From: Patescibacteria group bacterium
Lineage (GTDB): Bacteria > Patescibacteriota > Patescibacteriia > UBA10025 > JAHIVO01
Assembly (NCBI GenBank): GCA_041650915.1
Contig: JBAZKE010000001.1
Span: 379,284 to 443,283 of the forward strand
Direction: 5' to 3'
Length of the DNA stretch: 64,000 nt
Positions within the stretch are counted from its first letter, which is position 1. Each line of letters starts with the position of its first letter. The translations under genes and the position numbers were made by a program. Shown here piece after piece: positions 2,847-45,360 of this stretch. The notes beneath the pieces are model-generated. The model was given only the letters and a program-made list of their open reading frames with translations, was not told the DNA's origin and searched no databases.

Positions 2847-5800
2847 TTACGTGAGGGTGATGCTGTCGGTGCCGATGATTGACCGTATCGTATCAAAGCT
2901 TTCTTCCCGAATCAAGTAGTTGGTCGTGATAACCTTGATTTTTGATGAAGATCGCACCCTCAGGTGGACGCGGTATTCTCCCGGATGCTGCGAAAAGGTT
3001 ATTTTTAACCGGTTGAAGGTTTCCTTGTCCGTCCGGGCCGGAATGGCGATGTAAACATTGCCGGTCGCCTGCGTTGTATGCCGGGGTGCGGAGTCGCCCA
3101 TGGCGTCGAGGTTGAGCTGCTGCACTTCGCTGCAGAGGAGCTTGAGGCTGCCTTCCTTGTCTGAGACGCGCCCCTTGATCAGTACCACATGCTCTTCTTG
3201 CCACGGCGTTGGATTCGCCTGGAGGGTCGTCGGGAAGACGAGCACTTCGATGCGGCCCGACATGTCTTCGACCTTCACAAAGAGCATCGGGTCGTTGTTT
3301 CTCGTCAGTACCTTCTGGATGTTGCTGATGATGCCGCCGATCGTAATTTCTTTTCGGTGCGGTGCAGCAGCGGACAGGTCGCCAATCGGCGTGGCAAGAT
3401 TGCGCAGGCGCTCGCGGTATTCCTCAAGCGGGTGCTCAGAAATGTAGAGGCCGAGGAGCTGTTTCTCCCATGACAGCTTTTGCTGCTTGGTTGCGGGTGC
3501 GGCGCTCTTGAGCCGGAGCTGCGGCGCGTGTTGCGTCGGCAGCACGCCGAAGAGGTTTGTCTGCCCGTTGAGAGTTTCACGCTCAGCCGATTTCATGTAC
3601 GTGAGAATCGCATCAATGCTGCCAAGGAGCTCGTTGCGCTCGCCGAACTGGTCGAGTGCGCCCGCCTTCATGAGGCTCTCGAGTGTTTTCTTATTAAGGT
3701 CTTTTGTCTGGACGCGACGGAGAAGATCTTCAAGGTTTTTGAACGGCCCATTTTCCTTGCGTTCAGCGATGATGTTCCGGACGACATTGACACCGACGTT
3801 TTTTACCGCGAGCAGGCCGAACCTGATTTTTTTCATCGGATTTTTTTTCTCCGGATTGAAAACGGCGGTGAATGTCGAGAAACTTTCGTTGATGTCCGGC
3901 GGAAGCACCTGGATGTGCATTTGTTCACATTCCTCGACTTCAATAGCAATCCTGTCGATATTGCCGTAATCGGAAGTCAGCAACGACGCCATGAATTCGT
4001 CGGGGTAGTTCGCCTTGAGGTACGCCGTCTGGTATGCGATGAGCGCGTAGCACGCAGCGTGCGCCCGGTTGAATCCGTACCGCGCGAACGGTTCGATAAA
4101 TTGCCAGATTTTTTGTGCGGTTGAACGGGGTATTTTATTTTTTACCATTCCCTCGATCATTTTATCGCGCTGCTGGATGAGCAGCTTGCGGATTTTTTTT
4201 CCGACTGCTTTCCTGAGTACGTCCGCTTCGGCGAGCGAGAATCCGGCGAGGTCACGCGCGATCTGCATAACTTGCTCCTGGTATACTGCAATGCCGTACG
4301 TCCGTTCGAGGATCGGCTTGAGCCTCGGATTCAGGTACGTCGCCAGCTTGAGGCCGTGCTTTCCGGCAATGAAGTCGGGGATGAGCTCCATGGGGCCGGG
4401 GCGGTATAGAGCAACCATCGCAATGATGTCTTCGAGCTCGGTTGGCTTGAGCTGTTTGAGGTAGCGTTTCATGCCTGATGATTCGAGCTGGAATACGCCG
4501 GTTGTCTTGCCCTGTTGGAGGAGCGTGAACGTTTTTTTGTCATCGAGCGGTATGGTATCGATGTTGATCTCGATGTTTCGTGCCTTTCTGATAATATTGA
4601 TTGTATTCTCGATGATCGTCAGGTTCTTCAACCCGAGGAAATCCATTTTGAGCAAGCCTAGATCTTCGATAGCGTGGAGATCGTACTGCGTGACGATGGT
4701 TTCGTCTTCGCTCTGTGCGGCATATTGGTAGGGGAGGTAGCGGTCGAGCGGTTCTTTAGTGATTACGACGCCGCATGCGTGCGTCGACGCGTGGCGGGCG
4801 ACTCCCTCGAGCTTTACGGCGGCATTGAGCAGTTTTTTCCCGTCAGGGTCGCTGTCATAGAGCGCCTTCAGCTCCGGAACCGCCTTGAGCGCGTCGGCGA
4901 TTGAAGAGAACATCGGGATGAGCTTGGCAACTTTGTCGCAGTACGCGTAAGCGAGGTCGAGCACGCGACCGGCATCCCGGACTGCCGCACGCGCTGCCAT
5001 GGTGCCGAAGGTGATGATCTGGGCTACGTGGTCTTTACCGTACTTATGCTCGACGTAGCGTATGACTTCATCCCGCCTCGTGTCCGCAAAATCGAGGTCG
5101 ATGTCAGGCATCGAAATCCGCTCGGGGTTGAGGAACCGCTCGAAGAGGAGGTCGTACTTGAGCGGATCGACATTGGTGATATTGAGGAGGTATGAGACGA
5201 TGCTCCCGGCAGCGGATCCGCGGCCGGGTCCGACGACGATGCCGTTCTGCTTCGCCCAGTTGACGAAATCCTGGACAATCAGAAAATAGGACGCGAATCC
5301 CGTCTTTTCAATGACGCCGAGTTCGTACTCGAGCCGTTTCTCGATAACGGCATCCCGCTCTCGCCCGGGGAACCGTTTTGGAATTCCGCCCGTGCACAGT
5401 TCTCTGAGGTAGGCATCGGGTAGCTTGCCGTTCGGCACCTCGAAGTGCGGCAGCTGGATCGTGCCAAGCTCGATGGTAACCGTACACGCTTGCGCAATTT
5501 TTATCGTATTTGCAATCGCTTCGGGGTGGTCAGGGAAAGCTTTTGCCATTTCTTCGGGAGTCTTGAAAGAGAAGTCCTCTCCGAGGTATGTCATCCGATC
5601 CCGGTCCCGCTGCTTCCGCTTCGTTTGCAGGCAGATCAGGATATCGTGTATTTCGTCATCGTCGCTATTCAGGTAGTGCACGTCATTGGTTGCGACGACC
5701 GGCAGGTCGAACTTTTTTCCGAGCGCAAATATCGTTTCGTTCACCTCATTCTGGTGGGGGATGCTCGGGTGGTCCTGCACTTCAAGGTAGAAGTTTCCGG

Positions 5801-11076: not shown

Positions 11077-12228
11077 TTGCATCCGTCCGTAAAAATGCAA
11101 AAACAAAACAAAAAACCATCCGCATGGCATCCGATTCGCGAACAGCACACGGTCCCTTGGGTCGCGGGGTTGTTTGTTGTGGCGACCGCTTTTTCGTGGT
11201 GGTACTGCGTTACGTACCTCGCGTCGAGTGCAGCTGTCGTGAATTCATACTTTTCATTGGCTGGAAATTCTCTCATCATGAAAGGCGAAGCGGCGATGGT
11301 TGAAACGGCTGCCGTGACCATGGAGCGCCTCATTGACGGATCCATCGTCGATGCTGATAAAGCGGGCTATTGGCCGTATGCGGTGATGATAGAAAATCTT
11401 CTGTCAGTCAGGCCCCAGAGCGGCCTGTCGCAGGCTTCTGTCGTATACGAGTCGCTCGTCGAGGGAGGCGCTACGCGATTCATGGCAGTATTCGACCCCT
11501 CTGAAATTATTCCCGAGATCATGCCAGTCCGCTCAGCACGGCCGTACTACCTCGAGTGGTCATCTGAGTACGGAGCGCTGTACGCCCACGCCGGCGGCAG
11601 CCCGAAGGCGCTCACCGTTATCCGTGAGAACGACGACATCAATGATCTCGAGGCACTCTCGAGCGACGCCAAGTACTTTTGGAGGGATACGTCAAAGTCC
11701 GCGCCGCACAATCTGGTGACATCATCGGAAAAAATGAATTTTGCGCTTCACGACAAGGGACTCATTGAACATGCCGCGACGTTCGATCCCTGGCGCTTCA
11801 AAGATGACGCCGAGCTTGAGTCGCGCGGGGATGGCGGTAAAACCGCGAGTTTCAACTTTTCCTATGGCCTGACGTATAAGGTTGATTTTACTTACAACCG
11901 TGAGCGGAATGAGTACCTGCGGTTCAATGCTGATGAGCCCCATCTCGATAACAATACCGGCGAGCAGATTGCAGTAAAGAACGTTATTGTACAGCTTGTT
12001 GAAGAGCCACTATTGGACGGCGGCAAGGGCAGGCTTGAGATTTACGCTGGAGGAGAGGGCAGCGCGTGGATGTTCCGTGACGGGCTCGCGATTCCGTGCA
12101 CCTGGAAAAAGGGCTCCCGGACAGACCGAACGCGTTTCTACGACCAGGAGGGGAATGAGCTCGAGCTCAACCGCGGAGCGATCTGGGTGCACATCGTTCC
12201 GAAAGACCAGGCGGTAACGTACGAATAG
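11077..12228 (+). CDS. DUF3048 domain protein, tandem paralog
   Basis: Carries the same signature blocks (PYAVMIENLLSVRPQSGL, VYESLVEGGATRF, MPVRSARPYY, HAGGS). Sits directly downstream of the first copy. Confidence 0.75.
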   Translation: MHPSVKMQKQNKKPSAWHPIREQHTVPWVAGLFVVATAFSWWYCVTYLASSAAVVNSYFSLAGNSLIMKGEAAMVETAAVTMERLIDGSIVDADKAGYWPYAVMIENLLSVRPQSGLSQASVVYESLVEGGATRFMAVFDPSEIIPEIMPVRSARPYYLEWSSEYGALYAHAGGSPKALTVIRENDDINDLEALSSDAKYFWRDTSKSAPHNLVTSSEKMNFALHDKGLIEHAATFDPWRFKDDAELESRGDGGKTASFNFSYGLTYKVDFTYNRERNEYLRFNADEPHLDNNTGEQIAVKNVIVQLVEEPLLDGGKGRLEIYAGGEGSAWMFRDGLAIPCTWKKGSRTDRTRFYDQEGNELELNRGAIWVHIVPKDQAVTYE

Positions 12229-16786: not shown

Positions 16787-17580
16787 TCAAACGTGCCGCC
16801 GGAGTACAGTTCAATCCCTGGGATCACGTCTACCACTATGATTGCAGTGACGCTAAGGTAAAACCCGGCGACCACCTCATTGTCAGGGTTGATACGGGAC
16901 TCGAGATAGCGAAGGTGGTGAGCGTCGCCGAAGTTGATGACGAAACGCTTGATGAACCCCTGAGGCAGATCGTTCGGCGCGCGACCGCCGAGGACGTTAA
17001 GCGGGGCAACGCCCAGCAGGAGAAGCGCGATGAGCTCCTCTCGAAAGCACGGACGCTCGTCGAGCAGCGCGGACTGGCCATGAAGCTCGTCGACTGCTAC
17101 TTCTCGTTCGATGGCGGAAGGGTGACGTTCGTATTTACCGCAGATGGGCGTGTTGATTTCCGGGAACTCGTCAAAGATCTCGCTCGGGCGTTCCAGAAGT
17201 CGATCCGGTTGCAGCAGGTCGGTATTCGCGATGAGGCCCGGCGCATGGGAGGATTCGGCCCGTGCGGGCGCGAGGTATGCTGCAAGCAGTTCCTCGGTGA
17301 TCTCACGAGCGTAACGACAGAGATGGCACGAATTCAGCAGGTTCATAGCAGGGGGAGCGACAGGATATCCGGTGCGTGCGGACGGCTCATGTGTTGTCTC
17401 GCGTATGAGGCGGCTGATTATGAGGCGGCACTGAAGGACTTCCCGCCGATTGACAGTACGGTTACGACGAAGCTAGGAAAGGGAACGGTGAGTTCCTACA
17501 ATGTCATCAAGAAGACAGTCATGGTAAGAATCGATAAGGGTGTCACTGAGGTGCCCCTGGAAGAAGTACGCATCGTATGA
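16783..17580 (+). CDS. PSP1 C-terminal domain protein (YaaT/RicT-like)
   Basis: GCGREVCCKQFL ... GACGRLMCCLAYE cysteine pairs typical of the PSP1/RicT family. Confidence 0.8.
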   Translation: MIKRAAGVQFNPWDHVYHYDCSDAKVKPGDHLIVRVDTGLEIAKVVSVAEVDDETLDEPLRQIVRRATAEDVKRGNAQQEKRDELLSKARTLVEQRGLAMKLVDCYFSFDGGRVTFVFTADGRVDFRELVKDLARAFQKSIRLQQVGIRDEARRMGGFGPCGREVCCKQFLGDLTSVTTEMARIQQVHSRGSDRISGACGRLMCCLAYEAADYEAALKDFPPIDSTVTTKLGKGTVSSYNVIKKTVMVRIDKGVTEVPLEEVRIV

Positions 17581-18452
17581 TACTCGACTACATCGCAATT
17601 GCCGTTCTCGCAGCAGCAATTATCGCGATCCTCGTGATACTCTGGAGAAAATTTTCCATACTCGCTGCGATTAATACGGAAACCATCAAGGAGGAACAGC
17701 AGAGCAAGGTGAAGCGGAGCTTGATTGAGGGGAGGCTCAAGCGCAAACTCGCCTCAATGCGGGCGCGCAGCGTCCTCAAGAATGGAAATGTCGACGGTAG
17801 CAGCAGTGAAAGCAAACCGTCAGCGATACGCGGTTTCTATAACGCCCTCCGCAAACTGGAGCAGAACTACCGCAGTAAAATTCGTGAACTCGAGCCTCAG
17901 GACGAGGGAGCAAAAGAAAAGAACGTATCGATCCTCATACGCGATGCGCGGGCGCTCCGGGACAGTGAACTGTATAAGGAAGCGGAGCAGAAGTACATCG
18001 AGGCAATCAGCGTTGACAGCAGGTCGGTAGAAGCGTATGAAAATCTTGGCGGCCTGTACGTCGAACTCAGAGATTACGACCACGCAAAAGAGATATACCA
18101 GTACCTGCTTAAGCTCCGTTCGACAGACCTCTCTGAATCTCCGAACAAGCAGACTGGCAGCATCGACCGTGGCGATGTCTCGACGGTATCGCTCGCAAAG
18201 GAAGTAGCGGGGTACCACGTGGAGCTTGGAGAGGTGTACCGTGCGGAAGGTGAACCGCAGAAAGCGCTCGACTGTTTCCAAGAGGCGGTGAAGCTCGAAC
18301 CAAACAATCCGCGCAATCTCGACAGGGTAGCCGAGACCGCACTCGAGCTCAAAGATAAACCGCTCGTGCAGGCCACCGTAGATAAGCTTCGTGAGGTGAA
18401 TCCAGAGAATGAAAAGCTCGCTGAGTTCGAGGAAGCGTTGAAGCAGCTGTAG
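17577..18452 (+). CDS. membrane-anchored TPR repeat protein
   Basis: N-terminal TM, then TPR-like repeats (AYENLGGLYVELRDYDHAKEIYQYLL, EVYRAEGEPQKALDCFQEAVKLEPNN). Confidence 0.6.
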   Translation: MILDYIAIAVLAAAIIAILVILWRKFSILAAINTETIKEEQQSKVKRSLIEGRLKRKLASMRARSVLKNGNVDGSSSESKPSAIRGFYNALRKLEQNYRSKIRELEPQDEGAKEKNVSILIRDARALRDSELYKEAEQKYIEAISVDSRSVEAYENLGGLYVELRDYDHAKEIYQYLLKLRSTDLSESPNKQTGSIDRGDVSTVSLAKEVAGYHVELGEVYRAEGEPQKALDCFQEAVKLEPNNPRNLDRVAETALELKDKPLVQATVDKLREVNPENEKLAEFEEALKQL

Positions 18453-18536
18453 TCCGGAAGTAAGGTTGTTCTCCCTATCGCGTTGTAGCCCAGCTTGCCC
18501 TGTTACAGTTGTTGTAGCTCAGTTGGTCCCGTCCGA

Positions 18537-18610
18537 GCCGATGTAGCTCAGTTGGTAGAGCAACTCCATGGTAAGGAGTAGGTCGCCAGTTCAATTCTGG
18601 CCATCGGCTC
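18537..18610 (+). tRNA. tRNA-Thr (anticodon GGT)
   Basis: GCCGATGTAGCTCAGTTGGTAGAGCAACTCCATGGTAAGGAGTAGGTCGCCAGTTCAATTCTGGCCATCGGCT folds as a cloverleaf with anticodon loop AUGGUAA. Flanked by a 10-bp inverted repeat that extends the acceptor stem. No encoded CCA. Confidence 0.85.
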
Positions 18611-18667
18611 GGACGGGATAAATGCCGCCACTCCATGCCTGCCCCGTACATTGAGCGAAGCAAAATG

Positions 18668-18715
18668 ATGCGGGGGGTAAGGAGTAGGTCTGCGGTTCGA
18701 CTCCGCGCAACGGTT
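18668..18715 (+). pseudogene. tRNA 3'-half fragment (anticodon-stem 3' strand + T-arm + acceptor 3' strand)
   Basis: GGTAAGGAGTAGGTCTGCGGTTCGACTCCGCGCAACGG resembles the 3' half of the tRNA-Thr(GGT) above, with no matching 5' half. Partial 5' copies (TGTAGCYCAGYTGG x3) lie at 18481-18560. Confidence 0.5.
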
Positions 18716-18830
18716 GCAACGGGGAAAGCAATTTGACAGTCAAACATGGGTAGGTACCCCCGGCATTCGCCGGGACAGGCTCCGTGGTTTTTACCTCGGG
18801 CTTGGTGGACATGCCATACTCATATCTGGC

Positions 18831-18920
18831 GGGCGGGTAGGTACCGAAGTGGTCAAACGGGGCAGACTGTAAATCTGCTGGCTTCGGCCTTCGGGGGTTC
18901 GAATCCCTCCCTGCCCACCA
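18831..18920 (+). tRNA. tRNA-Tyr (anticodon GTA), long variable arm, CCA encoded
   Basis: GGGCGGG acceptor 5' strand, anticodon loop CUGUAAA, long variable arm, T-arm GGGGGTTCGAATCCCTC, 3' end CCTGCCCACCA. Flanked by about a 15-bp inverted repeat. Confidence 0.8.
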
Positions 18921-19290
18921 GATGTGAGTATGAGTAGCTGGCATACTGTTTGTGCCGCCGAAGGGCTGTATAAATCTGCTGGCCTCGGCCTTTAGGGGGT
19001 TCGAATCCCATGGGATTCGAACGGGCACGAACGAGGCGCAGCCGAGTGACAAACAATTCGAGCTTGCGCAGAATTGTTTGGTGCCCAGGACGAGAATCCC
19101 TCCCTGCCCACCAGATGTGAGTATGAGTAGCTGGCATACTGTTTGTGCCGCCGAAGGGCTGTATAAATCTGCTGGTTCCGGTCTTTTGGGGGTTTGCATC
19201 CCATGGGATTCGAACGGGCACGAACGAGGCGCAGCCGCAGGAGTATTTTTAAAACCTCATGACTCTTTAAAAAAGCTATCCGTTCGGACG
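18901..19290 (+). repeat. tandem ~195-bp duplication containing the tRNA-Tyr 3' end plus degenerate tRNA-Tyr-like sequence
   Basis: GAATCCCTCCCTGCCCACCAGATGTGAGTATGAGTAGCTGGCATACTGTTTGTGCCGCCGAAGGGCTGTATAAATCTGCTGG... occurs at 18901 and again at 19094. Each unit holds a degenerate anticodon arm (CTGTATAAATCTG) and a palindromic T-arm-like segment (GGGGGTTCGAATCCCATGGGATTCGAACGGG). Confidence 0.8.
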
Positions 19291-19291
19291 C

Positions 19292-19366
19292 GCCACCCTA
19301 GCTCAGTGGTAGAGCAACTGTTTTGTAAACAGTAGGTCGTCGGTTCGAATCCGACGGGTGGCTCCA
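19292..19366 (+). tRNA. tRNA-Thr (anticodon TGT), CCA encoded
   Basis: GCCACCCTAGCTCAGTGGTAGAGCAACTGTTTTGTAAACAGTAGGTCGTCGGTTCGAATCCGACGGGTGGCTCCA. Anticodon loop UUUGUAA. Confidence 0.85.
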
Positions 19367-19545
19367 GGCCCTAGCTCAGTGGGTCGAGACCACGAGCAAA
19401 CACAACTGCTTGTGTTTGCGAGGAGTCGAGACGGGCATGACGATGCGGGAACCGCCGGCATGCCCCGGAAGAGCAACTGTGGAGCCTATCCCGAGCGAAG
19501 TCGAGGGATAAACAGTAGGTCGTCGGTTCGAATCCGACGGGTAAC
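19367..19545 (+). pseudogene. tRNA-Thr-like pseudogene with a ~110-nt structured insertion between the D-arm and anticodon arm
   Basis: 5' part GGCCCTAGCTCAGTGGGTCGAG. The 3' part ATAAACAGTAGGTCGTCGGTTCGAATCCGACGGGT is identical to tRNA-Thr(TGT). The acceptor strands do not pair. The insert carries perfect hairpins (GCAAACACAA-CTGC-TTGTGTTTGC; GGGCATG...CATGCCC). Confidence 0.6.
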
Positions 19546-19685
19546 TTATCGGGTCGCCGCTCTGGCGGGTTACGTGTGGCTTGTCAAATAAGCTCCACTG
19601 CACCCCTTGTGCGCATGCCCCTCTTCCCAAAAAATGCGCACCATTTTTTGGGAGCACTGCAGAATTATTGATTAATCGCAATATT

Positions 19686-19841
19686 ATGTCACAAGACAAC
19701 ATCATCAAGCTCGAATGTACGGAGTGCAAACACATCAACTACCACTCGCACAAGAATAAAAAGCTGCACAAGGACCGGATTGAGATCAAGAAGCACTGTA
19801 AGTGGTGCAAAAAGCACACGATGCATAAAGAAACGAAGTAA
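19686..19841 (+). CDS. rpmG: 50S ribosomal protein L33
   Basis: [49 protein letters not shown] is an L33 zinc ribbon (CxxC...CxxC). Start at the internal ATG of track ORF 19581..19841. Confidence 0.85.
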
Positions 19842-19951
19842 TTTTGAAGACCTTTTTCGAAAGTAGCTTTCACTGTATTCCGAAATAAGCCGTATCGGCC
19901 ATCGCAGGTAACCCGAGACCTTTGGTTCGTAGTTGATTCGGAATTTTTTAT

Positions 19952-20026
19952 GGGGCTATAGTACAATGGCTAGTATAGCGGTCTCCAAAACCGTTGATCG
20001 AGGTTCGAATCCTCGTGGCCCCGCCA
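19952..20026 (+). tRNA. tRNA-Trp (anticodon CCA), CCA encoded
   Basis: GGGGCTATAGTACAATGGCTAGTATAGCGGTCTCCAAAACCGTTGATCGAGGTTCGAATCCTCGTGGCCCCGCCA. Anticodon loop CUCCAAA. Confidence 0.85.
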
Positions 20027-20175
20027 GAACTACCCGTCTCGGGGGCTTTTTGGTACGATGTTACAATAGCGTAACTAGCCAATGGATTCGAAAAGCAGCA
20101 GCGACCCTGAACTAAGTTCAGGGGAGCGCCGATGAATGCGAGTTTGCGCAGCATTCATCGCTGCTTATGGACCCG

Positions 20176-20240
20176 AATCCTCGTGGCCCCGCCAGAACTA
20201 CCCGTCACGGGGGCTTTTTGGTATGATGTTACAAAGGATC
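20176..20240 (+). repeat. direct repeat: second copy of the tRNA-Trp 3' end plus its downstream terminator
   Basis: GAATCCTCGTGGCCCCGCCAGAACTACCCGTC(T/A)CGGGGGCTTTTTGGTA(C/T)GATGTTACAA is present at 20006-20070 and again at 20176-20240 (att-like duplication). Confidence 0.75.
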
Positions 20241-20253
20241 TATACTCTACACC

Positions 20254-20703
20254 ATGCAGATATCCAACGCATCAAAAAAAGACAGAGAACAGGCGATGGC
20301 AGCCGCAAAAAACTTGAAGGATTGGTTTACTGATGAAGGGTTGAAGAATATGAGGATTGATTTTGACCTGAATAACGTAGCCGTCGCAAAAGAGAACGGC
20401 ATCGTTGTCGGTTTCTTGTGCTACACTGCGTATTCCGGAAAGATGCTGCTCCTGTGGATGGGGGTTCAGCTGCCAGCGCAACGAAAGGGTGTGGGGCAAA
20501 AATTGCTGCAGTGGCTGGAAAATGAGGGCAGAAAGCTCGGTTGCCATTCGATAGAAGTTGAAACCTTGCCGGATGAAGACGATTACGAACCCTACCGGAG
20601 AACTCGCTCTTTTTATTACACAAATGGATTTGAGCGGATTTTTTATAAGAAGGCGCGTGTTGATGGCTGGGATGACCACATTGTTCTCGAAAAAAAGATT
20701 TAG
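20254..20703 (+). CDS. GNAT family N-acetyltransferase
   Basis: Acetyl-CoA binding motif QRKGVGQKLL, about 150 aa. Confidence 0.75.
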   Translation: MQISNASKKDREQAMAAAKNLKDWFTDEGLKNMRIDFDLNNVAVAKENGIVVGFLCYTAYSGKMLLLWMGVQLPAQRKGVGQKLLQWLENEGRKLGCHSIEVETLPDEDDYEPYRRTRSFYYTNGFERIFYKKARVDGWDDHIVLEKKI

Positions 20704-39932: not shown

Positions 39933-40011
39933 CTTGTTTTGCTGTTCGTGGGGGAGAAGGCGACTGGCGGGAAGTGGTGGAGTTGACAATCTGGGCGAAC
40001 GGGTGTACGAT
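39933..40011 (+). promoter_or_regulatory. promoter module copy d (diverged), then a consensus TTGACA-17-TACGAT promoter
   Basis: CTTGTTTTGCTGTTCGTGGGGGAG..., then TTGACAATCTGGGCGAACGGGTGTACGAT upstream of the GTG at 40049. Confidence 0.5.
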
Positions 40012-40048
40012 GCACCGAAAATTGAACCTATAAAAAACGGAGGATATC

Positions 40049-40435
40049 GTGAGTATTGAAATCAAGCATGACATCCAGACCAGGGTATCATTCACGCGTA
40101 CCGGGGTGAAGGCACGAGTGATCGCGTTCGTCATGGGGCTTCAGTGCGAGCTGACCCCGAATGACGTGCTGAAAAAGGCCGGGGTGGAAATTCTGCCGGG
40201 CGAACACTGGTACGTGGTGTATTATGACCATGACCAGAAATGGTACAGCGCGTGCAAGGTTGGCAATCCGGACGATACCGTCGCTTATGAGGAGGACATG
40301 GCGTACCTCATTACCCGTTCGGAAATACCGGAGCATGACGGCGTAGCTGTCCAAGCTGCCATCGAAAAGGGCATCTATGCCTATCGGACGCTAGTCGGCA
40401 GTTCCAAGCCCATCTGGATTGAGAGGGAGCATTAA
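40049..40435 (+). CDS. hypothetical protein (GTG start)
   Basis: 128-aa ORF with a consensus promoter and a GGAGG RBS (AAACGGAGGATATCGTG). Confidence 0.5.
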   Translation: MSIEIKHDIQTRVSFTRTGVKARVIAFVMGLQCELTPNDVLKKAGVEILPGEHWYVVYYDHDQKWYSACKVGNPDDTVAYEEDMAYLITRSEIPEHDGVAVQAAIEKGIYAYRTLVGSSKPIWIEREH

Positions 40436-40544
40436 TATCAGTACCCAACACAATGAAAGGGTGGTTTGCATGACGCAGATCACCCTTGATTTTTTTGTGC
40501 TCCCGCACCATTGAAAATGGTGTGAGAGGTTGATTTATTAGCAA

Positions 40545-40565
40545 AAAAGGAGGAGAATGGGGGTA
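40545..40565 (+). promoter_or_regulatory. conserved promoter module, truncated copy e at the edge of the AT-rich island
   Basis: AAAAAAGGAGGAGAATGGGGGTA keeps only the 3' half (the -10 and G-run) of the module. Confidence 0.4.
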
Positions 40566-40592
40566 TGTATTTGGTTTACACCATGATTATTA

Positions 40593-41468
40593 ATGACTAT
40601 GACTATGACAGATTACAGTGAGTTTCAAAAAAGATTCAAACTATTAGCGAGTAAAAATAAACATCTCGTAATTAACACCTTATCCAATATATTTACGATG
40701 AGGTTAATTGGTAATAAAACTCACGGTGATTTAGCAGAGATAGGCATGGTTGAATTTATTAACCAGTTCATGTATGACTTTAAAAGTATTCATGTTGGGA
40801 AAGATTTATTCCGGGCAAAAGAACATGAAGAGGATATAGTTGTTATTAATGAAATTACCAAAACTAAATTTCCCGTAAGTTTAAAGGCATATGGAGATGG
40901 GCCGCTACAACTTTCAACTGATTGTGACCAAAAAATGTTTCCATTTCTTGAGAAACAAGGTAAAAATATTGTAAATTCTAACAAAATAGAAGAGGTGTTT
41001 AAATCAAAAGAATTCGCAGCATTTGATGCAATAAATGTTATGCCACTTATTTATGATGAGAAAAAACAGAGATGTAATATTATGATTTTCGATCATAATA
41101 AAGCTATAAATGAAACTAGAAGGATTGTTTTCATTAATTTCAAAGAAAAATTTGATTTTGAAACCAAAAAAGTAATTCCAGGGAATTCTCGATCACACCC
41201 AATTTTTATGTTTCTTGATACTGGAGGAAATTATATATGTGAGGTTAGATATGGAGGCGCTTCAGCAAATGCACTTCAACGTGGTTTTTGGACTCATACA
41301 AAAAATGCACTTTCATTTTTTGATTCACTCACAAACGGCTGGATTGACTATTCTCATAATCAGACACTAGTAAAGTTGTTTAGCCTCGCACTTAATAGTT
41401 CTGAGCAGGGTCATAAATTAGCTAATGAAATTCTTCAGAAAGACATCGACAGATTAAAGACTTTATGA
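40593..41468 (+). CDS. putative type II restriction endonuclease (DpnII/MboI-family-like)
   Basis: 291 aa, AT-rich. Its stop overlaps the MTase start (ATGA). The block EVRYGGASANALQ resembles the DpnII-family EVNFYSGSGSKLN block; similarity judged by eye only. Confidence 0.4.
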   Translation: MTMTMTDYSEFQKRFKLLASKNKHLVINTLSNIFTMRLIGNKTHGDLAEIGMVEFINQFMYDFKSIHVGKDLFRAKEHEEDIVVINEITKTKFPVSLKAYGDGPLQLSTDCDQKMFPFLEKQGKNIVNSNKIEEVFKSKEFAAFDAINVMPLIYDEKKQRCNIMIFDHNKAINETRRIVFINFKEKFDFETKKVIPGNSRSHPIFMFLDTGGNYICEVRYGGASANALQRGFWTHTKNALSFFDSLTNGWIDYSHNQTLVKLFSLALNSSEQGHKLANEILQKDIDRLKTL

Positions 41469-42577
41469 CTGACCAGCAATTGAACATTTTTGGTAATTCC
41501 ACCATAACCACACCAAAAACTGAAGGTATTAAGTATGCTGGGTCAAAGTTAAAAATCTTGCCATATATAATTGAATTAGTAAGCGATTTAAAGGGTGTAA
41601 AAAAAATCTTAGATGGCTTTACTGGCACAACTCGTGTTGCACAAGCTATGGCACAACTTGGATATGACGTAACCGCCAGTGATATATCAATATGGTCGGA
41701 AGTATTTGCTAATTGTTATTTAAAGTCGAAGAAACCCGATAAATTTTATCAGGATATTCTAGACCATTTAAACAAGCTAAAGGGTTGTGATGGTTGGTAT
41801 ACTAGACATTATGGCGCCAAACCAAAAGAGAATAAAAAGCCATTTCAGGAAAAAAATACCCGTAAATTAGATGCGATCAGAGATGAAATTGAGAAGATTA
41901 ATTTACAATGGGTTGATAAATGTGTTATTTTGACCTCATTAATTAATGCATTAGATTCGGTTGATAGCACACTGGGTCATTATGTTTCATATCTCTCAAA
42001 TTGGTCTAAACGTTCGTATAATGATTTATATTTAAAATTACCAAAAAGAATTCAAAGTCCTGGCAAACATAAAGTGATTAAAGGAGATATTTTTGAAACA
42101 ATTAATAATAATGAATTTGATTTAGTGTATTTTGATCCACCGTATGGCTCAAACAATGAAAAAATGCCACCCAGCAGAGTCCGTTATGCCTCTTATTATC
42201 ATATTTGGACGACGGTTATCAAACATGATAAACCGGTAGTTTTTGGTAAGGTAAATCGAAGAGAAGATAGTAGGGACTTGGTAGCTGGTTCTGTATTTGA
42301 GGATTTTAGGAAAGATAATAATGGTTCATTTATTGCAATGGAAGCATTAAGAAGATTAGTCAAAGAAACAAAAGCACGATATATATTATTGTCATACAGT
42401 TCTGGCGGAAGAGCAACAAAAAAGGAACTTAATGAGATAATTGATGAATCGGGTAAACTATTAAAAGCAGTTGAAATTAATTATAAAAAGAACGTAATGG
42501 CTAATATGCGATGGACACATGAATGGATAAACAGTGATGGAAAGCATTCGGAATACCTTTTTTTAATGAAAAAATGA
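41465..42577 (+). CDS. D12-class (Dam-like) N6-adenine DNA methyltransferase
   Basis: N-terminal IKYAGSKLKILPYII (KWAGGK-type motif I) and catalytic VYFDPPYG (DPPY). Confidence 0.8.
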   Translation: MTDQQLNIFGNSTITTPKTEGIKYAGSKLKILPYIIELVSDLKGVKKILDGFTGTTRVAQAMAQLGYDVTASDISIWSEVFANCYLKSKKPDKFYQDILDHLNKLKGCDGWYTRHYGAKPKENKKPFQEKNTRKLDAIRDEIEKINLQWVDKCVILTSLINALDSVDSTLGHYVSYLSNWSKRSYNDLYLKLPKRIQSPGKHKVIKGDIFETINNNEFDLVYFDPPYGSNNEKMPPSRVRYASYYHIWTTVIKHDKPVVFGKVNRREDSRDLVAGSVFEDFRKDNNGSFIAMEALRRLVKETKARYILLSYSSGGRATKKELNEIIDESGKLLKAVEINYKKNVMANMRWTHEWINSDGKHSEYLFLMKK

Positions 42578-42589
42578 TAGGACAATGTT

Positions 42590-42745
42590 ATGGCAATAGA
42601 AAAGGTTAGTTTTATCGCGACAAAGTATAAAAACAAACCGACAATGGTACGTTTTTATACTAAAAAAGGTGATGTTGTAAGATTTTCAGCTCAAAAAAAA
42701 GCACCCGTAAAGCAGGTTGTTGAATTTAAAGCTAAGTCAAAATAA
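42590..42745 (+). CDS. small basic protein (51 aa)
   Basis: MAIEKVSFIATKYKNKPTMVRFYTKKGDVVRFSAQKKAPVKQVVEFKAKSK. Below the ORF-track length cut-off; lies between the MTase and rusA. Confidence 0.35.
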   Translation: MAIEKVSFIATKYKNKPTMVRFYTKKGDVVRFSAQKKAPVKQVVEFKAKSK

Positions 42746-42748
42746 ATT

Positions 42749-43198
42749 GTGAGCACTACATATTTTGATTACAGTTTTGGGTTGTCAGAAATTATTCCAT
42801 CAGGCAATCGTCAAAAAAGTGATAGTGCTTGTGCGTTTTATAAAGTTGTTGGTCAAGCGTTAAAAGATATTGATAAACAAGGAATCTTCCCAACAAAAAA
42901 GTTAGTTTTTATTTTTATTTTACAGTTTTTTTCGAATCAAGAAGAATATCAAAAACGAGATATTGATAATATGTGCAAAACCATGCTGGCGGCATTAAAA
43001 AATAAGATATATGAGGACGACGTACAAGTAAAAACGTTATTAATCAGTAAACAAATAAATAGTAAGATTCCGGTAAACTTCGTTTACATCGGAATAAAGT
43101 TATCCGATTACAAGGATAATACCGGAATGGTGAAAGTAAATATTAACAATGCCATATCATTGTTTCAGGGCTCTGTTAAACAAGCAGTTGAAAAGTAA
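42749..43198 (+). CDS. rusA: RusA-family Holliday junction resolvase (phage-type)
   Basis: QKRDIDNMCKTMLAALKNKIYEDDVQV matches the RusA catalytic block [28 protein letters not shown]. Confidence 0.7.
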   Translation: MSTTYFDYSFGLSEIIPSGNRQKSDSACAFYKVVGQALKDIDKQGIFPTKKLVFIFILQFFSNQEEYQKRDIDNMCKTMLAALKNKIYEDDVQVKTLLISKQINSKIPVNFVYIGIKLSDYKDNTGMVKVNINNAISLFQGSVKQAVEK

Positions 43199-43237
43199 TA
43201 TAATACGGTAGATACTATATGAGTGCTAATCCTAGCA

Positions 43238-43267
43238 CTTGTTTTGTTATTGGTGGGGGAGTAGGAT
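43238..43267 (+). promoter_or_regulatory. conserved promoter module, copy f (TTGTTT-17-TAGGAT)
   Basis: CTTGTTTTGTTATTGGTGGGGGAGTAGGATGG, 10 nt before the ATG at 43277. Confidence 0.55.
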
Positions 43268-43276
43268 GGAGAATAT

Positions 43277-44365
43277 ATGGTAAGCATTTTCGAACAAATT
43301 TCAATTTTATTACAAGGACAGCCTTGGATGGTTTTTGGTGGTTATAATTTAAAACTCCAGGGGATTGATAATAGCGCAAATGATATTGATATTGTTACGA
43401 CTGATAAGGGGATTGGGATAATAGCCAAAACGAGAAAAGAAAAAGTTAATCGAGGAAATAATTGGAAAGGATGTAAATTTGTCGTAAATGGACTGCAAAT
43501 TGACGTAATCACTGAGGAGGGTTTTACTCAACAATTTTTTCAAAAATACTTACAAGAAAACAGAATAAACATTATATATTATGATGGCGTACCAGTATTT
43601 TGTTTAAAATTATCTGAGCAACGAAAAGGATACGAAGCAATTTTAGCCGCTCATAAGGGGAGCAATGACCCAACTCTTAAGATAGAATTATTGAAAAAAT
43701 ATGAGGAAAGTAATAAATTCACCCCCGAGCAATGGTATGTTGTGTGGAAAAGAATTTTCGAAGAAAATTTATTAGCCGACTTATATAAACTAGTCAGTAA
43801 TCAACCGCAGCAAAGTGGAGGTTTGAATTTCGTTATTGTACTGATGTGCCTCGTAACTATGGATTTAGTGGGGAAGCTTATTTGCGGATCAAATAACAAA
43901 GACGCAATAAGGGCATTTATTAAATCGGAGTTTTTTCAAATACCTAAAGCTTACAATGGAGACGACTTTGCGGATATAATTAATACTGAATTAAGAAATA
44001 ACCTGGCTCATGCCTTTTTCCCTGAAAGGAACATTGCAATTGGCAGAAATACACCTTTTCAACATTTTAATATTATACCAGTAGTCGGTTCTGAAAGAAA
44101 ATTATTTTGGATTGATGCTGATGAACTGCACCGGGATCTTTTGCAATCGTTAGATCAATATAAAGCGGCTTTAATTGAAGATAAAAAACAGGACGGCGAT
44201 AGACTCAGGTCATTATTTGTTAAATATGTTAATGAAAATATGTTAACTGAGTCGATAAATCTTAAAGGGTTTATGGAAAAGAATTATAAGCTCGATGTAC
44301 ATAATTATCCAATTAGTTCAGATAAGGTTACTCATACTACAACGTTACCGCCTGAAACAAAATAA
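43277..44365 (+). CDS. fused minimal nucleotidyltransferase (MNT) - HEPN-like protein
   Basis: N-terminal WMVFGGYNLKLQGIDNSANDIDIV (hGG-x13-DhD NTase motif, Lnu-like). C-terminal ELRNNLAHAFF fits the HEPN R-x4-H motif. Confidence 0.5.
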   Translation: MVSIFEQISILLQGQPWMVFGGYNLKLQGIDNSANDIDIVTTDKGIGIIAKTRKEKVNRGNNWKGCKFVVNGLQIDVITEEGFTQQFFQKYLQENRINIIYYDGVPVFCLKLSEQRKGYEAILAAHKGSNDPTLKIELLKKYEESNKFTPEQWYVVWKRIFEENLLADLYKLVSNQPQQSGGLNFVIVLMCLVTMDLVGKLICGSNNKDAIRAFIKSEFFQIPKAYNGDDFADIINTELRNNLAHAFFPERNIAIGRNTPFQHFNIIPVVGSERKLFWIDADELHRDLLQSLDQYKAALIEDKKQDGDRLRSLFVKYVNENMLTESINLKGFMEKNYKLDVHNYPISSDKVTHTTTLPPETK

Positions 44366-44456
44366 TTTCCATTGTTTATATCGGCAGATCCGCCCCCCCG
44401 CTGGCGGTTTTTTGTTTGGGATGATCGTGATACAATAATAATACATAAAAAATTAT

Positions 44457-44696
44457 ATGAAAAAAGCACTATATATTTCCTTTGCTATCGTTGTACTGCT
44501 CGGTGCCGGGATATTCATTTACTTCCAATACTGGGGCACTGATGGCATCCCTACGAATTCAAACACCAACACGCCTGCTAATACGAATGCGGTCGCCTGC
44601 ACCATGGAAGCTAAACTTTGCCCGGACGGATCGGCAGTGGGACGCACTGGCCCGAATTGCGAATTCGCGGCCTGCCCGGAAGTGGAGCAGGAGTAG
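44457..44696 (+). CDS. small secreted/membrane-anchored protein with NTNTPANTN linker
   Basis: 79 aa with N-terminal TM and Cys pairs in the C-terminal part. Confidence 0.45.
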   Translation: MKKALYISFAIVVLLGAGIFIYFQYWGTDGIPTNSNTNTPANTNAVACTMEAKLCPDGSAVGRTGPNCEFAACPEVEQE

Positions 44697-44900
44697 GTTG
44701 GAAGGAAGGAGGGTGTAAGTTTTAGGAAGAAAGTAAGGAAGTATGAGATAGGAAGAAGGGTGGATGAAGGGAAGTAGGGCGAATGATGAAGGCATAGTAG
44801 TAGGAAGTAAGTTTTTAGGTTGTACGAAGAAAGTAAAGAAGAAGGAAATTAGAAGAAGGATACGCATTGACGCGAAAAGGAAATTCTGATAACATTGAAG
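44697..44900 (+). repeat. strand-asymmetric purine-rich (GA) low-complexity tract with internal imperfect repeat
   Basis: GGAAGGAAGGAGGG...AGGAAGAAAGTAAGGAAG... The units (GTAAGTTTT(T)AGG...GAAGAAAGTAARGAAG) occur twice. Confidence 0.6.
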
Positions 44901-45350: not shown

Positions 45351-45360
45351 CAAATCATAT

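Follow-up and report, generated by a model that had tools for sequence, protein, structure and literature searches.

The analysed window, a stretch of 64,000 nt from a Patescibacteria group bacterium, carries a cluster of four intact tRNA genes (Thr-GGT, Tyr, Thr-TGT and Trp, identified by ARAGORN and Rfam) in the order Thr-GGT, Tyr, Thr-TGT, rpmG, Trp. Each of them is accompanied by degenerate copies of itself that are broken at loops. These copies are nested around Thr-GGT and Tyr and placed after Tyr, Thr-TGT and Trp, and G+C-rich hairpins interrupt them in the D, anticodon and T loops. None of the degenerate copies was scored as a tRNA by the Rfam model even at E ≤ 10, and only four of the tRNA-like pieces in the window are genes, the rest being relics (Table 1).

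Table 1 Intact tRNA genes, displaced copies and inserts at the tRNA cluster (window coordinates).
Feature	Position	Strand	Remarks
Outer (layer 2) Thr(GGT)-like 5' fragment GCGTTGTAGCCCAGCTTG	18480..18497	+	Acceptor strand and D arm
Layer 1 Thr(GGT)-like 5' fragment GTTGTTGTAGCTCAGTTGGT	18508..18527	+	Ends within D loop
Thr(GGT) unit	18527..18618	+	Gene at tip of perfect 17-bp helix
Intact tRNA-Thr(GGT)	18537-18610	+	ARAGORN; Rfam 71.0 bits
Remainder of layer 1 Thr(GGT) copy	18627..18714	+	
Layer 1 anticodon stem, 5' strand	18627-18637	+	
38-nt hairpin insert (CCTGCCCCGTA...)	18638-18675	+	After ATG in layer 1 anticodon loop
Layer 1 Thr(GGT) orphan 3' half	18676-18714	+	
Second acceptor 3' remnant TGCAACGGGG	18715..18724	+	Partner of outer 5' fragment; pairing by eye
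Outermost Tyr copy, 5' part	18748..18783	+	nt 1-11 GGGTAGGTACC; hairpin CCCGGCATTCGCCGGG; anticodon-stem remnant
Tyr unit	18815..18932	+	Includes complementary leader 18815-18829 and trailer 18918-18932
Intact tRNA-Tyr(GTA)	18835-18920	+	ARAGORN; Rfam 58.6 bits
Repeat unit 1	18901..19093	+	193 nt
Unit 1, Tyr 3' end	18901-18920	+	From T loop; then trailer
Unit 1, displaced Tyr' copy A	18940-18948; 18949-18970; 18971-19009	+	Anticodon stem; hairpin relic; remaining part
Unit 1, T-loop element	19010-19093	+	Fold z = -4.1
Repeat unit 2	19094..19237	+	144 nt shared, 95% identical
Unit 2, displaced Tyr 3' end	19094-19113	+	Then trailer
Unit 2, Tyr' copy B	19133-19202	+	Variable and T arm decayed
Unit 2, left 34 nt of T-loop element	19203-19236	+	Element truncated here
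Intact tRNA-Thr(TGT)	19292-19366	+	ARAGORN; Rfam 74.4 bits
Disrupted second Thr(TGT) copy (Thr(TGT)')	19369..19542	+	Acceptor pairing lost
Thr(TGT)', nt 5-18; nt 20-30; nt 35-68	19369-19382; 19470-19480; 19509-19542	+	
Thr(TGT)', D-loop insert	19383-19469	+	87 nt, two-domain
Thr(TGT)', anticodon-loop insert	19481-19508	+	28 nt
Intact tRNA-Trp	19952-20026	+	ARAGORN; Rfam 66.1 bits
tRNA-Trp with 40-nt trailer	19952..20066	+	Last 60 nt (20007-20066) are repeat copy 1
108-nt insert after Trp trailer	20067..20174	+	Homologous to Tyr T-loop element
Displaced Trp 3' end and trailer copy	20175..20234	+	T-loop GAATCC to CCA

Around Thr(GGT), 5' and 3' remnants of the gene follow one another as nested parentheses do, with matching acceptor strands. 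The leader and trailer of the intact gene add 10 bp to its acceptor stem; its inverted repeat I4 is 17 nt long and 100% complementary, and the unit has a fold z of -5.3. The layer 1 copy holds this whole unit in its D loop, and its 5' fragment contains 15 nt identical to nt 6-20 of the intact gene and pairs at 7 of 7 positions (3 of them G-T) with CAACGGT at 18708-18714. The outer 5' fragment, together with the preceding base, pairs at 6 of 7 positions with the 3' remnant CAACGGG at 18718-18724. The first-pass annotation had counted three 5' fragments upstream of this tRNA and an orphan 3' half downstream. The 3' half is indeed present, but only the two 5' fragments listed in Table 1 are displaced pieces, the third being the 5' end of the real gene. 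The CCTGCCCCGTA hairpin family is also found in a related locus, L004.

Pairing between leader and trailer was considered as a general processing signal and rejected. Counted as an extension of at least 6 bp, it occurred in 2.8% of 212 tRNAs compared with 1.8% in shuffled controls, and within that set it was confined to Thr(GGT) genes of the window's clade.

The leader and trailer of tRNA-Tyr form inverted repeat I1 (27 nt, 85% complementary), and further out lies the 5' part of another copy, in which the hairpin CCCGGCATTCGCCGGG replaces the D loop and which has a homologous segment in L004 (~3637-3680). Downstream, a direct repeat relates 18901-19044 to 19094-19237 over 144 nt at 95% identity, with starts 193 nt apart. 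All 7 mismatches are clustered in 18983-19004, and the final 49 nt of the unit are unrelated (19045-19093 vs 19238-19286). Since these tails are unrelated and Tandem Repeats Finder reported no array in 17500-20500, the 193-nt repeat is not a clean tandem. A 195-bp tandem duplication that includes the tRNA-Tyr 3' end had been proposed at first; a direct repeat with that content exists and starts with GAATCCCTCCCTGCCCACCA as described, but its shared length, spacing and tail are those given here. Likewise, the palindrome GTTCGAATCCCATGGGATTCGAAC, said to occur in each unit, is exact at 18999-19022 and only degenerate at 19192-19215. In copy A, the 22-nt hairpin relic lies between CTG and TAAA, and 18971-19009 corresponds to the stretch from the anticodon stem to the T loop. 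The loop motif of the T-loop element, GAGYTTGCGCAG, did not recur in the 161 loci that were retrieved. The ORFs over the repeat gave no Pfam match and are spurious, as had been supposed. One spurious ORF arising from tRNA fragments is a called gene in the public record.

The disrupted Thr(TGT)' copy, the Trp duplication and the position of intact Thr(GGT) and Tyr inside older copies all go beyond the first-pass annotation. The D-loop insert of Thr(TGT)' is homologous to its counterpart in L001 and folds alike, and the anticodon-loop insert, which L004 and L005 share, repeats 18759-18785 in inverted form. At tRNA-Trp, the 60-nt 3' end is duplicated with 58 of 60 positions identical (20007-20066 vs 20175-20234), and the Tyr and Trp 3' ends are both repeated from the T-loop GAATCC onward. 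The 108-nt insert between the two Trp copies contains a long hairpin with a conserved loop, GAGTTTGCGCAG (fold z = -5.0); its left end is an inverted T-loop left end, ATGGATTCGAA, and its right end, GGACCC, abuts GAATCC. The 40-nt Trp trailer looks terminator-like by eye and was not flagged in the terminator scan; the promoter and terminator scan of the locus was uninformative.

The independent Logan assembly SRR8542065 is identical over 18412-18565, breaks inside the repeats and resumes at ~20177, so that the interior, 18566-20176, comes from a single MEGAHIT k141 assembly, and L33 look-ups for independent contigs across the locus found none. The single-assembly interior and the breaks at both edges would fit a repeat structure mis-joined from reads of tRNA genes of several strains. 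But the independent assembly has the upstream fragments in identical form, the two repeat copies are told apart by 7 differences and have identical stretches of at most 82 nt, shorter than k = 141, and the same architecture is seen in many unrelated assemblies. We regard an assembly artefact as extremely unlikely.

The same gene order is found in L001 to L006, all from related Patescibacteria, and the layering differs in every one of them. L003 is compact, with 296 nt from Thr(GGT) to Thr(TGT) vs 830 nt in the window, and has no fragments. Russian-doll nests occur in L004, L005 and L006: in L004, about three layers of Tyr are present, with flanks that pair, and in L005 and L006 an older copy is split exactly between TTTTG and TAA by an intact Thr(TGT), which in L006 occurs twice over. 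More broadly, tRNA fragments of at least 11 nt lie outside called genes in 29 of 62 tRNA-bearing loci. Another locus, L036, carries ORF-less tandem units of period 101 that consist of a hairpin and a Tyr 3' half, which are a direct analogue of the window's repeat. No identical conserved arrangement emerged from this comparison of orthologous loci, and because the relatives range from compact to nested, the arrangement is not a conserved functional RNA. The first impression of an insertion and recombination hotspot is borne out.

In relatives, we found a cassette that contains, in order, a displaced tRNA 5' part, an ORF of ~80 aa of the GIY-YIG (UPF0213) type and an intact tRNA. Within the anticodon loop of the displaced part lies a double hairpin that is G+C-rich and conserved, and displaced copies of many tRNA types, from many lineages, systematically bear hairpins in this loop. 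The ORF matches the Pfam GIY-YIG domain PF01541 (E = 8.7e-15) and the PDB UPF0213 structure 1zg2 (E = 2.9e-15), and the nuclease belongs to the stand-alone UPF0213 family, which is related to the Slx1 nuclease domain. The proteins of the relatives are 77 to 84 aa long, and their structure and domain matches are only to the UPF0213 domain (1zg2, 1ywl) and to the SLX1 and I-TevI nuclease domains, with no separate DNA-binding domain. The catalytic residues of the GIY-YIG fold are retained, with Y5, Y16, G18, R26, H30 and E62 invariant in 8 proteins, all from relatives. We know of no UPF0213 protein whose cleavage specificity has been established.

The ORF abuts a tRNA of the same cluster in 7 genomes, and its presence is patchy across the relatives. 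A displaced 5' copy lies upstream of the ORF in most of these genomes, most clearly at three Tyr loci, and no such copy of at least 8 nt was found in L028 or L047. For a wider view, we scanned metagenomes with three Tyr-type proteins as seeds, because the eight-protein GIY-YIG alignment was too divergent. A same-strand tRNA starts at most 60 nt after the ORF in 52 of the 80 ORFs retrieved, and in 45 of these 52 a fragment of that tRNA, at least 10 nt long, lies within 400 nt upstream. The association of ORF, tRNA and displaced fragment is directly observed, as are the anatomy of the locus and the homology of its relics to cassette parts. The nucleases also cluster by target tRNA: for 44 of 72, the nearest neighbour is tied to the same tRNA type, where chance would give 16%. 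A search for a phage origin gave no relatives in IMG/VR and only 7 weak matches in INPHARED; the homologue search itself gave 4 proteins, which is no guide to the range of the family. Across literature in which subscription journals were mostly outside coverage, we found no description of cassettes of a GIY-YIG gene and a tRNA or of nested bacterial tRNA genes.

The 64-kb window contains no GIY-YIG ORF or remnant detectable by tblastn or six-frame HMM search (best E = 2.2), so it holds relics only, and its link to the cassettes runs only through the homology of non-coding relics. Here, the window's Tyr' insert between CTG and TAAA can be aligned to hairpin 2 of the double hairpin found in the cassettes of L001, L032 and L036. 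This double hairpin covaries, from CG to UA at one pair and among GC, CG and UA at another. Compensatory changes maintain the pairing of the structured inserts, as they would not in plain junk, and the hairpins would thus seem to have some function that the relic reading does not cover.

This covariation would also suit a reading that takes the interrupted copies for real tRNA genes, whose several short introns or expansion hairpins would be removed or tolerated after transcription. Every insert lies in a loop and forms a stable hairpin (z = -4 to -5), the two-domain fold of the D-loop insert is kept in the window and in L001 despite different sequence, and the second Thr(TGT) of L001 is intact except for its D-loop insert and one mismatch. 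In addition, many short inserts that are not introns, some of them coding for GIY-YIG proteins, are known from the rRNA genes of Candidate Phyla Radiation (CPR) bacteria (PMC11270868). Yet excising the window inserts restores no cloverleaf. In Thr(TGT)', anticodon bases and a 5' acceptor strand able to pair are missing, the Tyr' copies lack a D arm or 3' end, and the Thr(GGT)' copy lacks the 3' strand of the D stem. Each tRNA has an intact copy beside the interrupted ones in every case, and the variable layering, with none in L003, also speaks against functional interrupted genes. Neither a group I intron nor another Rfam family matched; no group I intron core was found in 18300-20200 (E ≤ 10) or in 8 related loci (E ≤ 0.1), and the inserts are 22-108 nt long. 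We consider this explanation unlikely. Some extra permissive Rfam matches (sX4, YrlA, plastid UTR motifs) were weak, at chance level and derived from the tRNA sequence itself, and were set aside.

The duplicated tRNA ends had originally been taken as scars of integrase-mediated insertion and excision. They can stand as scars of incoming DNA that restored a split gene, but the integrase part did not hold up. Under that proposal, elements with a tyrosine or serine integrase crossed over in the anticodon or T loop, brought replacement 3' ends with them and were later deleted, with arrays of tRNA ends left behind. Anticodon and T loops are the tRNA sublocations that integrases favour, and the T loop (GAATCC) is exactly where both duplicated 3' ends, that of Tyr and that of Trp, begin, with other breaks in the anticodon loop. 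An 8-kb island also lies between Tyr and Thr(TGT) in L006, but the eight ORFs scanned there, which encode radical SAM, TPP, methyltransferase and M16 peptidase proteins, include no integrase or transposase. Of the ORFs beside the window's own locus, the one run against Pfam was the GNAT ORF at 20254-20703. The spacers between the repeat copies are only 49 to 108 nt, which leaves no room for an island. The 5' fragments, the tRNAs nested in D and anticodon loops with inverted repeats and the loop hairpins would go unexplained, and the gene recurrently tied to fragments is the GIY-YIG nuclease rather than an integrase. We thus judge such att-site scars to be improbable. Integrating elements do leave comparable tRNA gene fragments at att sites (PMC9897764, PMC3293823): an incoming partial tRNA keeps the gene whole, the displaced part is a partial, non-canonical tRNA gene, and break points fall in the anticodon and T loops. 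The differences are that there is no island here and inserts are 20 to 200 nt, that 5' parts and whole genes are displaced as well, and that the copies are nested, not merely arrayed.

The systematic placement of hairpins in the anticodon loops of displaced copies, together with the conserved hairpin pairing, could instead mean that pseudo-tRNA arrays are kept as decoys or sponges against anticodon nucleases or tRNA-targeting toxins, the blocked anticodon loops being functional. Amplified phage tRNA-Tyr counters a tRNA-cleaving defence (PMC13096335). But half of the tRNA body is missing from most displaced copies and the copies decay, Tyr' copy B showing 7 clustered changes, which makes this reading very unlikely.

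We consider it fairly probable that the locus is a stack of dead tRNA copies left by repeated invasion by small mobile cassettes. Rather more tentatively, the element may belong to an undescribed class of selfish elements, a minimal UPF0213-type GIY-YIG nuclease with a conserved double hairpin that homes into tRNA loops and, rather than splicing itself out, heals the gene by replacement; successive variant alleles would then give rise to Russian-doll genes, and the window may be a multi-layer fossil record of this process at four tRNAs. Cassettes would insert in the D loop after GG(T), in the anticodon loop after TG, in the variable loop, and in the T loop between TTC and GAA. Each would carry a replacement, either a whole tRNA at a hairpin tip or the gene part from one side of the insertion, and the replacement tRNA would keep the cell alive while the old gene or half is displaced, persists as a fragment and decays. 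Later rounds would strike the new copy and so produce nested layers and short tandem arrays.

The active form of these cassettes would be the nuclease-bearing one seen in related Patescibacteria. We infer that the nuclease breaks the DNA of a tRNA gene and that the break is repaired from the element-bearing allele with the displaced fragment as a homology arm, so that homing would take place with no intron involved. The patchy presence of the ORF at one locus and the grouping of the nucleases by target tRNA lend this indirect support. If the genome that carries the element were itself broken, local tandem amplification could follow, of the kind demonstrated with SegB of phage T6. The 193-nt repeat, for instance, may represent amplification or re-insertion of a block made up of the new Tyr 3' end, the trailer, the displaced Tyr' and the T-loop element. 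In the window, the nuclease ORF would have been lost and the relics would have remained. Two points stand against homing: a protein of ~80 aa without a DNA-binding domain is unlike the characterised Seg and I-Tev enzymes, and the intact tRNA beside the ORF matches a presumed target in its internal sequence, which the model does not reconcile with self-immunity. Furthermore, the hairpin-tip cassettes with a whole tRNA (window, L004, L005, L006) were never seen together with the ORF and may be a separate type of element.

Judged by analogy, phage SegB is the closest known system. In phage T4, the gene for the GIY-YIG homing endonuclease SegB lies in a cluster of tRNA genes, and the preferred inheritance of that region depends on SegB (PMC2330249); T6 SegB, whose cleavage peaks map within tRNA genes, cuts RAWTSGAAC and drives tandem amplification of tRNA-Tyr (PMC13096335). 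Three likenesses can be named. RAWTSGAAC is the reverse complement of the T-loop, in which the window's Tyr and Trp duplications start; a GIY-YIG gene lies among tRNA genes, as in the relatives, the window itself being without a nuclease gene; and the recombination-dependent tRNA-Tyr arrays resemble the 193-nt array of the window and the 101-nt array of L036. Displaced hairpin-bearing pseudo-tRNA halves and Russian-doll nesting are not described for SegB in the parts available of either report (PMC13096335, PMC2330249). In contrast to SegB, the elements here are chromosomal in Patescibacteria, with no relatives in IMG/VR, and the NCBIfam group I intron endonuclease model aligns about the first 32 of its 215 positions to the proteins found here. 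SegB has ~220 aa with a DNA-binding domain, whereas these proteins have ~80 aa, belong to UPF0213 and consist of the catalytic domain only.

Other systems share single traits. In Archaea and red algae, tRNA genes with multiple non-canonical introns and split and permuted tRNAs are known (PMC4090602, PMC3728597), and there, too, inserts lie in the D, anticodon and T loops and are enclosed by helices of complementary flanking sequence. A dedicated endonuclease acts at bulge-helix-bulge (BHB) motifs to splice those genes, which are functional, whereas here the copies are incomplete, an intact copy is always present and the host is bacterial. The CPR rRNA genes, which come from the same organism group as the elements here, have short non-intron inserts at the tips or bases of stem-loops, and GIY-YIG ORFs occur only in inserts that are not introns (PMC11270868). 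They differ in that a single gene is interrupted, while here a duplicate tRNA compensates, and that paper mentions tRNA 0 times. Finally, HNH homing endonuclease genes are linked to bacterial tRNA arrays, the L-arrays; a homing-type nuclease gene is likewise conserved beside a tRNA operon and is proposed to aid horizontal spread, but the nuclease is of another family, the arrays reach up to 43 genes rather than single genes, and displaced or nested copies are not mentioned in the passages on the homing endonuclease (PMC8421152).

Taken alone, the window carries a modest practical message, namely which four of its tRNA-like pieces are genes and that all others are relics. Fragments of tRNA genes confuse tRNA annotation, break short-read assemblies, as happened here, and yield spurious ORFs. 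If the proposed homing of cassettes is true, it would explain the partial tRNA genes that litter patescibacterial tRNA loci. Elements in essential genes normally survive by splicing, as introns and inteins do, or by an att-site copy and an integrase. A nuclease element that brings its own replacement tRNA would, if confirmed, be a third survival strategy in essential genes. It would also give stand-alone UPF0213 nucleases a first biological role, and thus a testable substrate to a large family without an assigned function, and would suggest that tRNA alleles, acceptor stems especially, turn over under the pressure of selfish nucleases.

The window carries four intact tRNA genes, all found by ARAGORN on the forward strand and all scoring above the 29-bit threshold of the Rfam tRNA model; at E <= 10 this model gave no further tRNA-like match in 18300-20200. 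Fragments or inserts affect every one of the four. The host is a Patescibacteria (CPR) bacterium whose closest relatives are Patescibacteria MAGs, and genes for a TPR protein and a PSP1 protein lie upstream of the cluster. The L33 gene has no gene product on the public record. As the first-pass annotation had held, ORFs across the tRNA locus are spurious: the six-frame ORFs have no Pfam match, and one of 202 aa translates the antisense of the tRNA repeats, yet the public source record (ENA ERZ27247363, 540-kb contig k141_417452) lists it as a gene. In another part of the window, the AT-rich island at 40000-46000 (GC 32 to 41% vs about 54% elsewhere) is probably of foreign origin or left over from a prophage.

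Features of the window and of fetched related loci (L numbers; other coordinates are those of the window; Tyr' and Thr(TGT)' are degenerate displaced copies)
Feature	Position	Strand	Remark
TPR protein	17577-18452		upstream of tRNA cluster
Thr(GGT)-like 5' fragment	18480-18497		older (outer) layer
Thr(GGT)-like 5' fragment	18508-18527
tRNA-Thr(GGT)	18537-18610	+	Rfam 71.0 bits
Thr(GGT) orphan 3' half	18676-18714
Second acceptor remnant	18715-18724		older (outer) layer
Spurious ORF	18594-19199	-	202 aa
tRNA-Tyr(GTA)	18835-18920	+	Rfam 58.6 bits
Tyr' hairpin relics, 22 nt	18949-18970; 19142-19163		split anticodon loop at CTG/TAAA
Hairpin element after Tyr' T loop	19010-19093		84 nt
tRNA-Thr(TGT)	19292-19366	+	Rfam 74.4 bits
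Thr(TGT)', disrupted	19369-19542		3' of intact Thr(TGT)
rpmG (L33)	19686-19841		51 aa
tRNA-Trp(CCA)	19952-20026	+	Rfam 66.1 bits
D12 N6-adenine DNA methyltransferase	41465-42577		AT-rich island
RusA-like resolvase	42749-43198		AT-rich island
Gp49/HigB-like protein	44997-45350		AT-rich island
Thr(GGT) leader-trailer pairing	18527-18618; L004 3288-3381; L003 about 1815-1905; L001 about 11738-11850		lengthens acceptor stem
Double hairpin	L001 11909-11943; L032 2818-2852; L036 7341-7375		and 28 other places in fetched loci

The intact Thr(GGT) gene caps a 17-bp helix without mismatches (18527-18543 / 18602-18618), composed of the acceptor stem and a 10-bp extension by leader-trailer pairing. An earlier Thr(GGT) copy holds this unit in its D loop, resumes at 18627 and has a 38-nt hairpin in its anticodon loop. 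Remnants from the 5' and the 3' side nest like parentheses, and their acceptor strands match. Of the three 5' fragments that had been proposed here, two are genuine and the third belongs to the intact gene as its first bases; the orphan 3' half was confirmed. The leader-trailer extension differs in sequence in each genome where it was seen, and it is no general feature among 212 tRNAs surveyed.

An outer Tyr copy, with its nt 1-11 at 18748-18758, likewise encloses the intact Tyr gene, which is flanked by a leader and trailer that pair (27 nt, 85% complementary). The 20-nt Tyr 3' end, GAATCCCTCCCTGCCCACCA, is present twice, from 18901 and from 19094, and each copy starts a 144-nt segment (95% identity, spacing 193 nt). 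The 195-bp tandem duplication claimed earlier is borne out over this segment, but not over the final 49 nt of the unit, where the second copy has a different sequence altogether; Tandem Repeats Finder reported no array in the region. Since all seven mismatches between the 144-nt copies fall within 18983-19004 (variable arm and T arm) and the remaining 122 nt are identical, the pattern speaks for gene conversion in patches, or for decay of this stretch, rather than uniform divergence. Each unit, 3' of the intact Tyr, holds a displaced Tyr' copy, and a degenerate Tyr-like anticodon arm had previously been noticed in both; the slash in CTG/TAAA marks where the anticodon loop of Tyr' is split. The palindrome GTTCGAATCCC-AT-GGGATTCGAAC, also attributed to both units, is exact at 18999-19022 and only degenerate at 19192-19215; the exact copy would fit a T-loop break that was joined head to head or repaired by fold-back.

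The Thr(TGT)' copy, just past the stretch described at first pass, carries two inserts, one of 87 nt in the D loop and one of 28 nt in the anticodon loop. The D-loop insert folds as two domains, and it has a two-domain counterpart with different sequence at L001 12389-12475 and a degenerate one in L006 (19733-19829). The anticodon insert (19481-19508), common to L004 and L005, is an inverted copy of 18759-18785, comprising the hairpin and anticodon-stem remnant of the outermost Tyr fragment, and the same inverted pair occurs in L004 (about 3648-3675 vs 4358-4385); pieces have thus been copied in both orientations. For Trp, the last 20 nt and a 40-nt trailer are doubled (20007-20066 vs 20175-20234, 58/60 identical); the trailer is terminator-like by eye, but the terminator scan did not flag it. 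The 108-nt insert between these copies is homologous to the hairpin element after the Tyr' T loop, with a common loop GAGYTTGCGCAG and covarying stems, and among the loci fetched this element family was seen in the window alone.

An assembly artefact is unlikely to explain these structures. The interior of the locus is supported by one MEGAHIT k141 assembly, in which identical stretches are at most 82 nt, shorter than k, and the copies are not identical. An independent Logan assembly (run SRR8542065) matches the window exactly over 18412-18565 and stops inside Thr(GGT), and a second contig of that run begins around 20177, where the second Trp copy has its edge; short-k assembly is thus interrupted at both locus edges, which is what true repeats would lead one to expect. 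The same architecture also recurs across many unrelated assemblies.

A scan with the PSP1 protein yielded 80 loci, of which L001 to L006 are closest (PSP1 identity 62 to 68%) and keep the gene order. L003 is compact, with a Thr(GGT)-to-Thr(TGT) span of 296 nt vs 830 nt in the window and no fragments in its tRNA cluster. Overall, tRNA fragments of at least 11 nt lie outside called genes in 29 of the 62 tRNA-bearing loci. In L004, Tyr is nested like a Russian doll: three partial 5' pieces, the intact gene (3865-3949) and matching 3' pieces, with flanks that pair per layer and different Tyr alleles, one being the window's allele. In L005 and L006, an older copy has its anticodon loop split exactly at TTTTG/TAA by an intact Thr(TGT) with flanking inverted repeats, twice over in L006. 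The second Thr(TGT) of L001 is intact but for a D-loop insert homologous to that of the window. The arrangement is thus variable and is no conserved functional RNA, although genomes do share individual inserts, and inserts retain pairing. Insertion into tRNA loops is compensated by a duplicate tRNA or part of one, and it recurs, nests and decays; the points used repeatedly lie after GG(T) in the D loop, after TG in the anticodon loop, within the variable loop, and at TTC/GAA in the T loop. The observation made at first pass is confirmed and extended.

Its interpretation as integrase scars is only partly right: the T-loop and anticodon-loop break points fit, but insert sizes, nesting and 5' fragments do not, and no integrase was found among the scanned ORFs of an 8-kb island in L006 (11935-19956, between Tyr and Thr(TGT)). 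This island encodes two radical SAM enzymes, a split TPP enzyme, a methyltransferase, a DUF5680 protein and an M16 peptidase, so the same tRNA cluster also accepts larger cargo. The interrupted copies might instead be functional multi-intron tRNAs, as the loop positions and structured inserts would allow; against this, no cloverleaf can be rebuilt from the copies in the window, an intact copy always adjoins, and no two of L001 and L003-L006 have the same layering. That they are decoy RNAs is less likely.

In relatives, a GIY-YIG nuclease is physically associated with these structures. In L001, the segment that separates the intact Tyr from a displaced Tyr 5' half encodes a protein of about 83 aa with a GIY-YIG domain (PF01541, E = 8.7e-15). 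By tblastn, 8 of the 80 loci have relatives of it, and seven of these ORFs lie directly 5' of an intact tRNA of the same cluster: Tyr (L001, L032, L036), Trp (L024, L045, L028) or Thr(GGT) (L047). A displaced 5'-part copy of the neighbouring tRNA usually lies upstream of the ORF; in L028 and L047 no such tRNA fragment of at least 8 nt was found. When metagenome contigs were scanned without bias using three Tyr-type proteins, 52 of 80 loci had a same-strand tRNA starting at most 60 nt 3' of the ORF, and 45 of these 52 had a fragment (at least 10 nt) of that very tRNA within 400 nt upstream, against a chance expectation, by our own estimate, of a few per cent each. The adjoining tRNAs include Tyr, four Ser isoacceptors, Gln, Gly, Glu and Met, with Cys, Ile, Ala, Thr and Trp also within 150 nt of the ORF end. 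The nucleases cluster by adjoining tRNA type (nearest neighbour of the same type in 44/72 vs 16% by chance). They belong to the stand-alone UPF0213 family (PDB 1zg2, E = 2.9e-15; also 1ywl), the next-best matches being the SLX1 and I-TevI nuclease domains; no relatives were found in IMG/VR.

The full cassette begins with the 5' part of the old tRNA, whose anticodon loop carries a G+C-rich double hairpin, CCACCGCCnnnnGGCGGGGTnCCGCCnnnGGCGGnA (Tyr CTG/TAAA; Ser-CGA CTCG/AAA); then come a few further tRNA bases, the ORF, with its ATG in the variable loop (Tyr), anticodon loop (Gln) or T loop (Gly, Trp), and the intact tRNA, often overlapping the ORF stop codon. The 35-nt double hairpin occurs 31 times in the fetched loci as 25 distinct sequences, beside GIY-YIG ORFs and inside the anticodon loops of Tyr and Ser copies that were displaced; in some loci it has the opposite orientation. 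Two of its pairs show compensatory changes (CG to UA; GC, CG and UA), and it matched no Rfam family. It might serve as a recognition module, block re-cleavage or stabilise the 5' end of the mRNA. L036 also has, 3' of the intact Tyr, two units that lack an ORF and consist of GACTG, the hairpin, Tyr nt 36-84 and 12 nt (period 101 nt). In another fetched locus, L117, the 3' end of the ORF and a tRNA-Ser 5' part are repeated in tandem (150-620), a hint that the cassette as a whole, with its nuclease gene, has been amplified.

No GIY-YIG ORF or remnant was found in the window. The Tyr' 22-nt insert occupies the same CTG/TAAA site as the cassette and aligns with hairpin 2 of the double hairpin, and L004 has a compensated variant of it. 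The 193-nt units of the window are the analogue of the L036 arrays, and its Thr(TGT)' anticodon insert is common to relatives; on these grounds the window can be read as ORF-less relics of the cassette family, several rounds deep. The hairpin-tip whole-tRNA cassettes of the window and L004-L006 may be the same element or a second type.

Some of this has been known: tRNA fragments left by integrating elements (PMC9897764), homing endonuclease genes beside tRNA clusters, both SegB and the HNH genes at L-arrays described in PMC8421152, and short inserts in CPR rRNA genes, some with GIY-YIG ORFs, in a paper that never mentions tRNA (PMC11270868). Our literature search, of incomplete coverage, turned up no account of nested bacterial tRNA genes, nor of tRNA genes that have a UPF0213-type nuclease lodged in them together with displaced copies marked by a hairpin.

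Phage SegB offers a precedent by analogy for how such an element might spread. T4 SegB is described as a GIY-YIG homing endonuclease within a tRNA gene cluster that promotes inheritance of the region (PMC2330249). For T6 SegB, the account in PMC13096335 gives cleavage peaks within tRNA genes, a preference for RAWTSGAAC, which is the reverse complement of the T-loop sequence, and recombination-dependent tandem amplification of a tRNA-Tyr segment. In the Patescibacteria, the nuclease, a catalytic domain of about 80 aa, would break tRNA gene DNA, and the break would be repaired from the element-bearing allele, the displaced fragment providing the homology arm; this would amount to homing without an intron. 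Breaks in the element's own genome would lead to local tandem amplification. The window is a fossil example of this family, not an active element.
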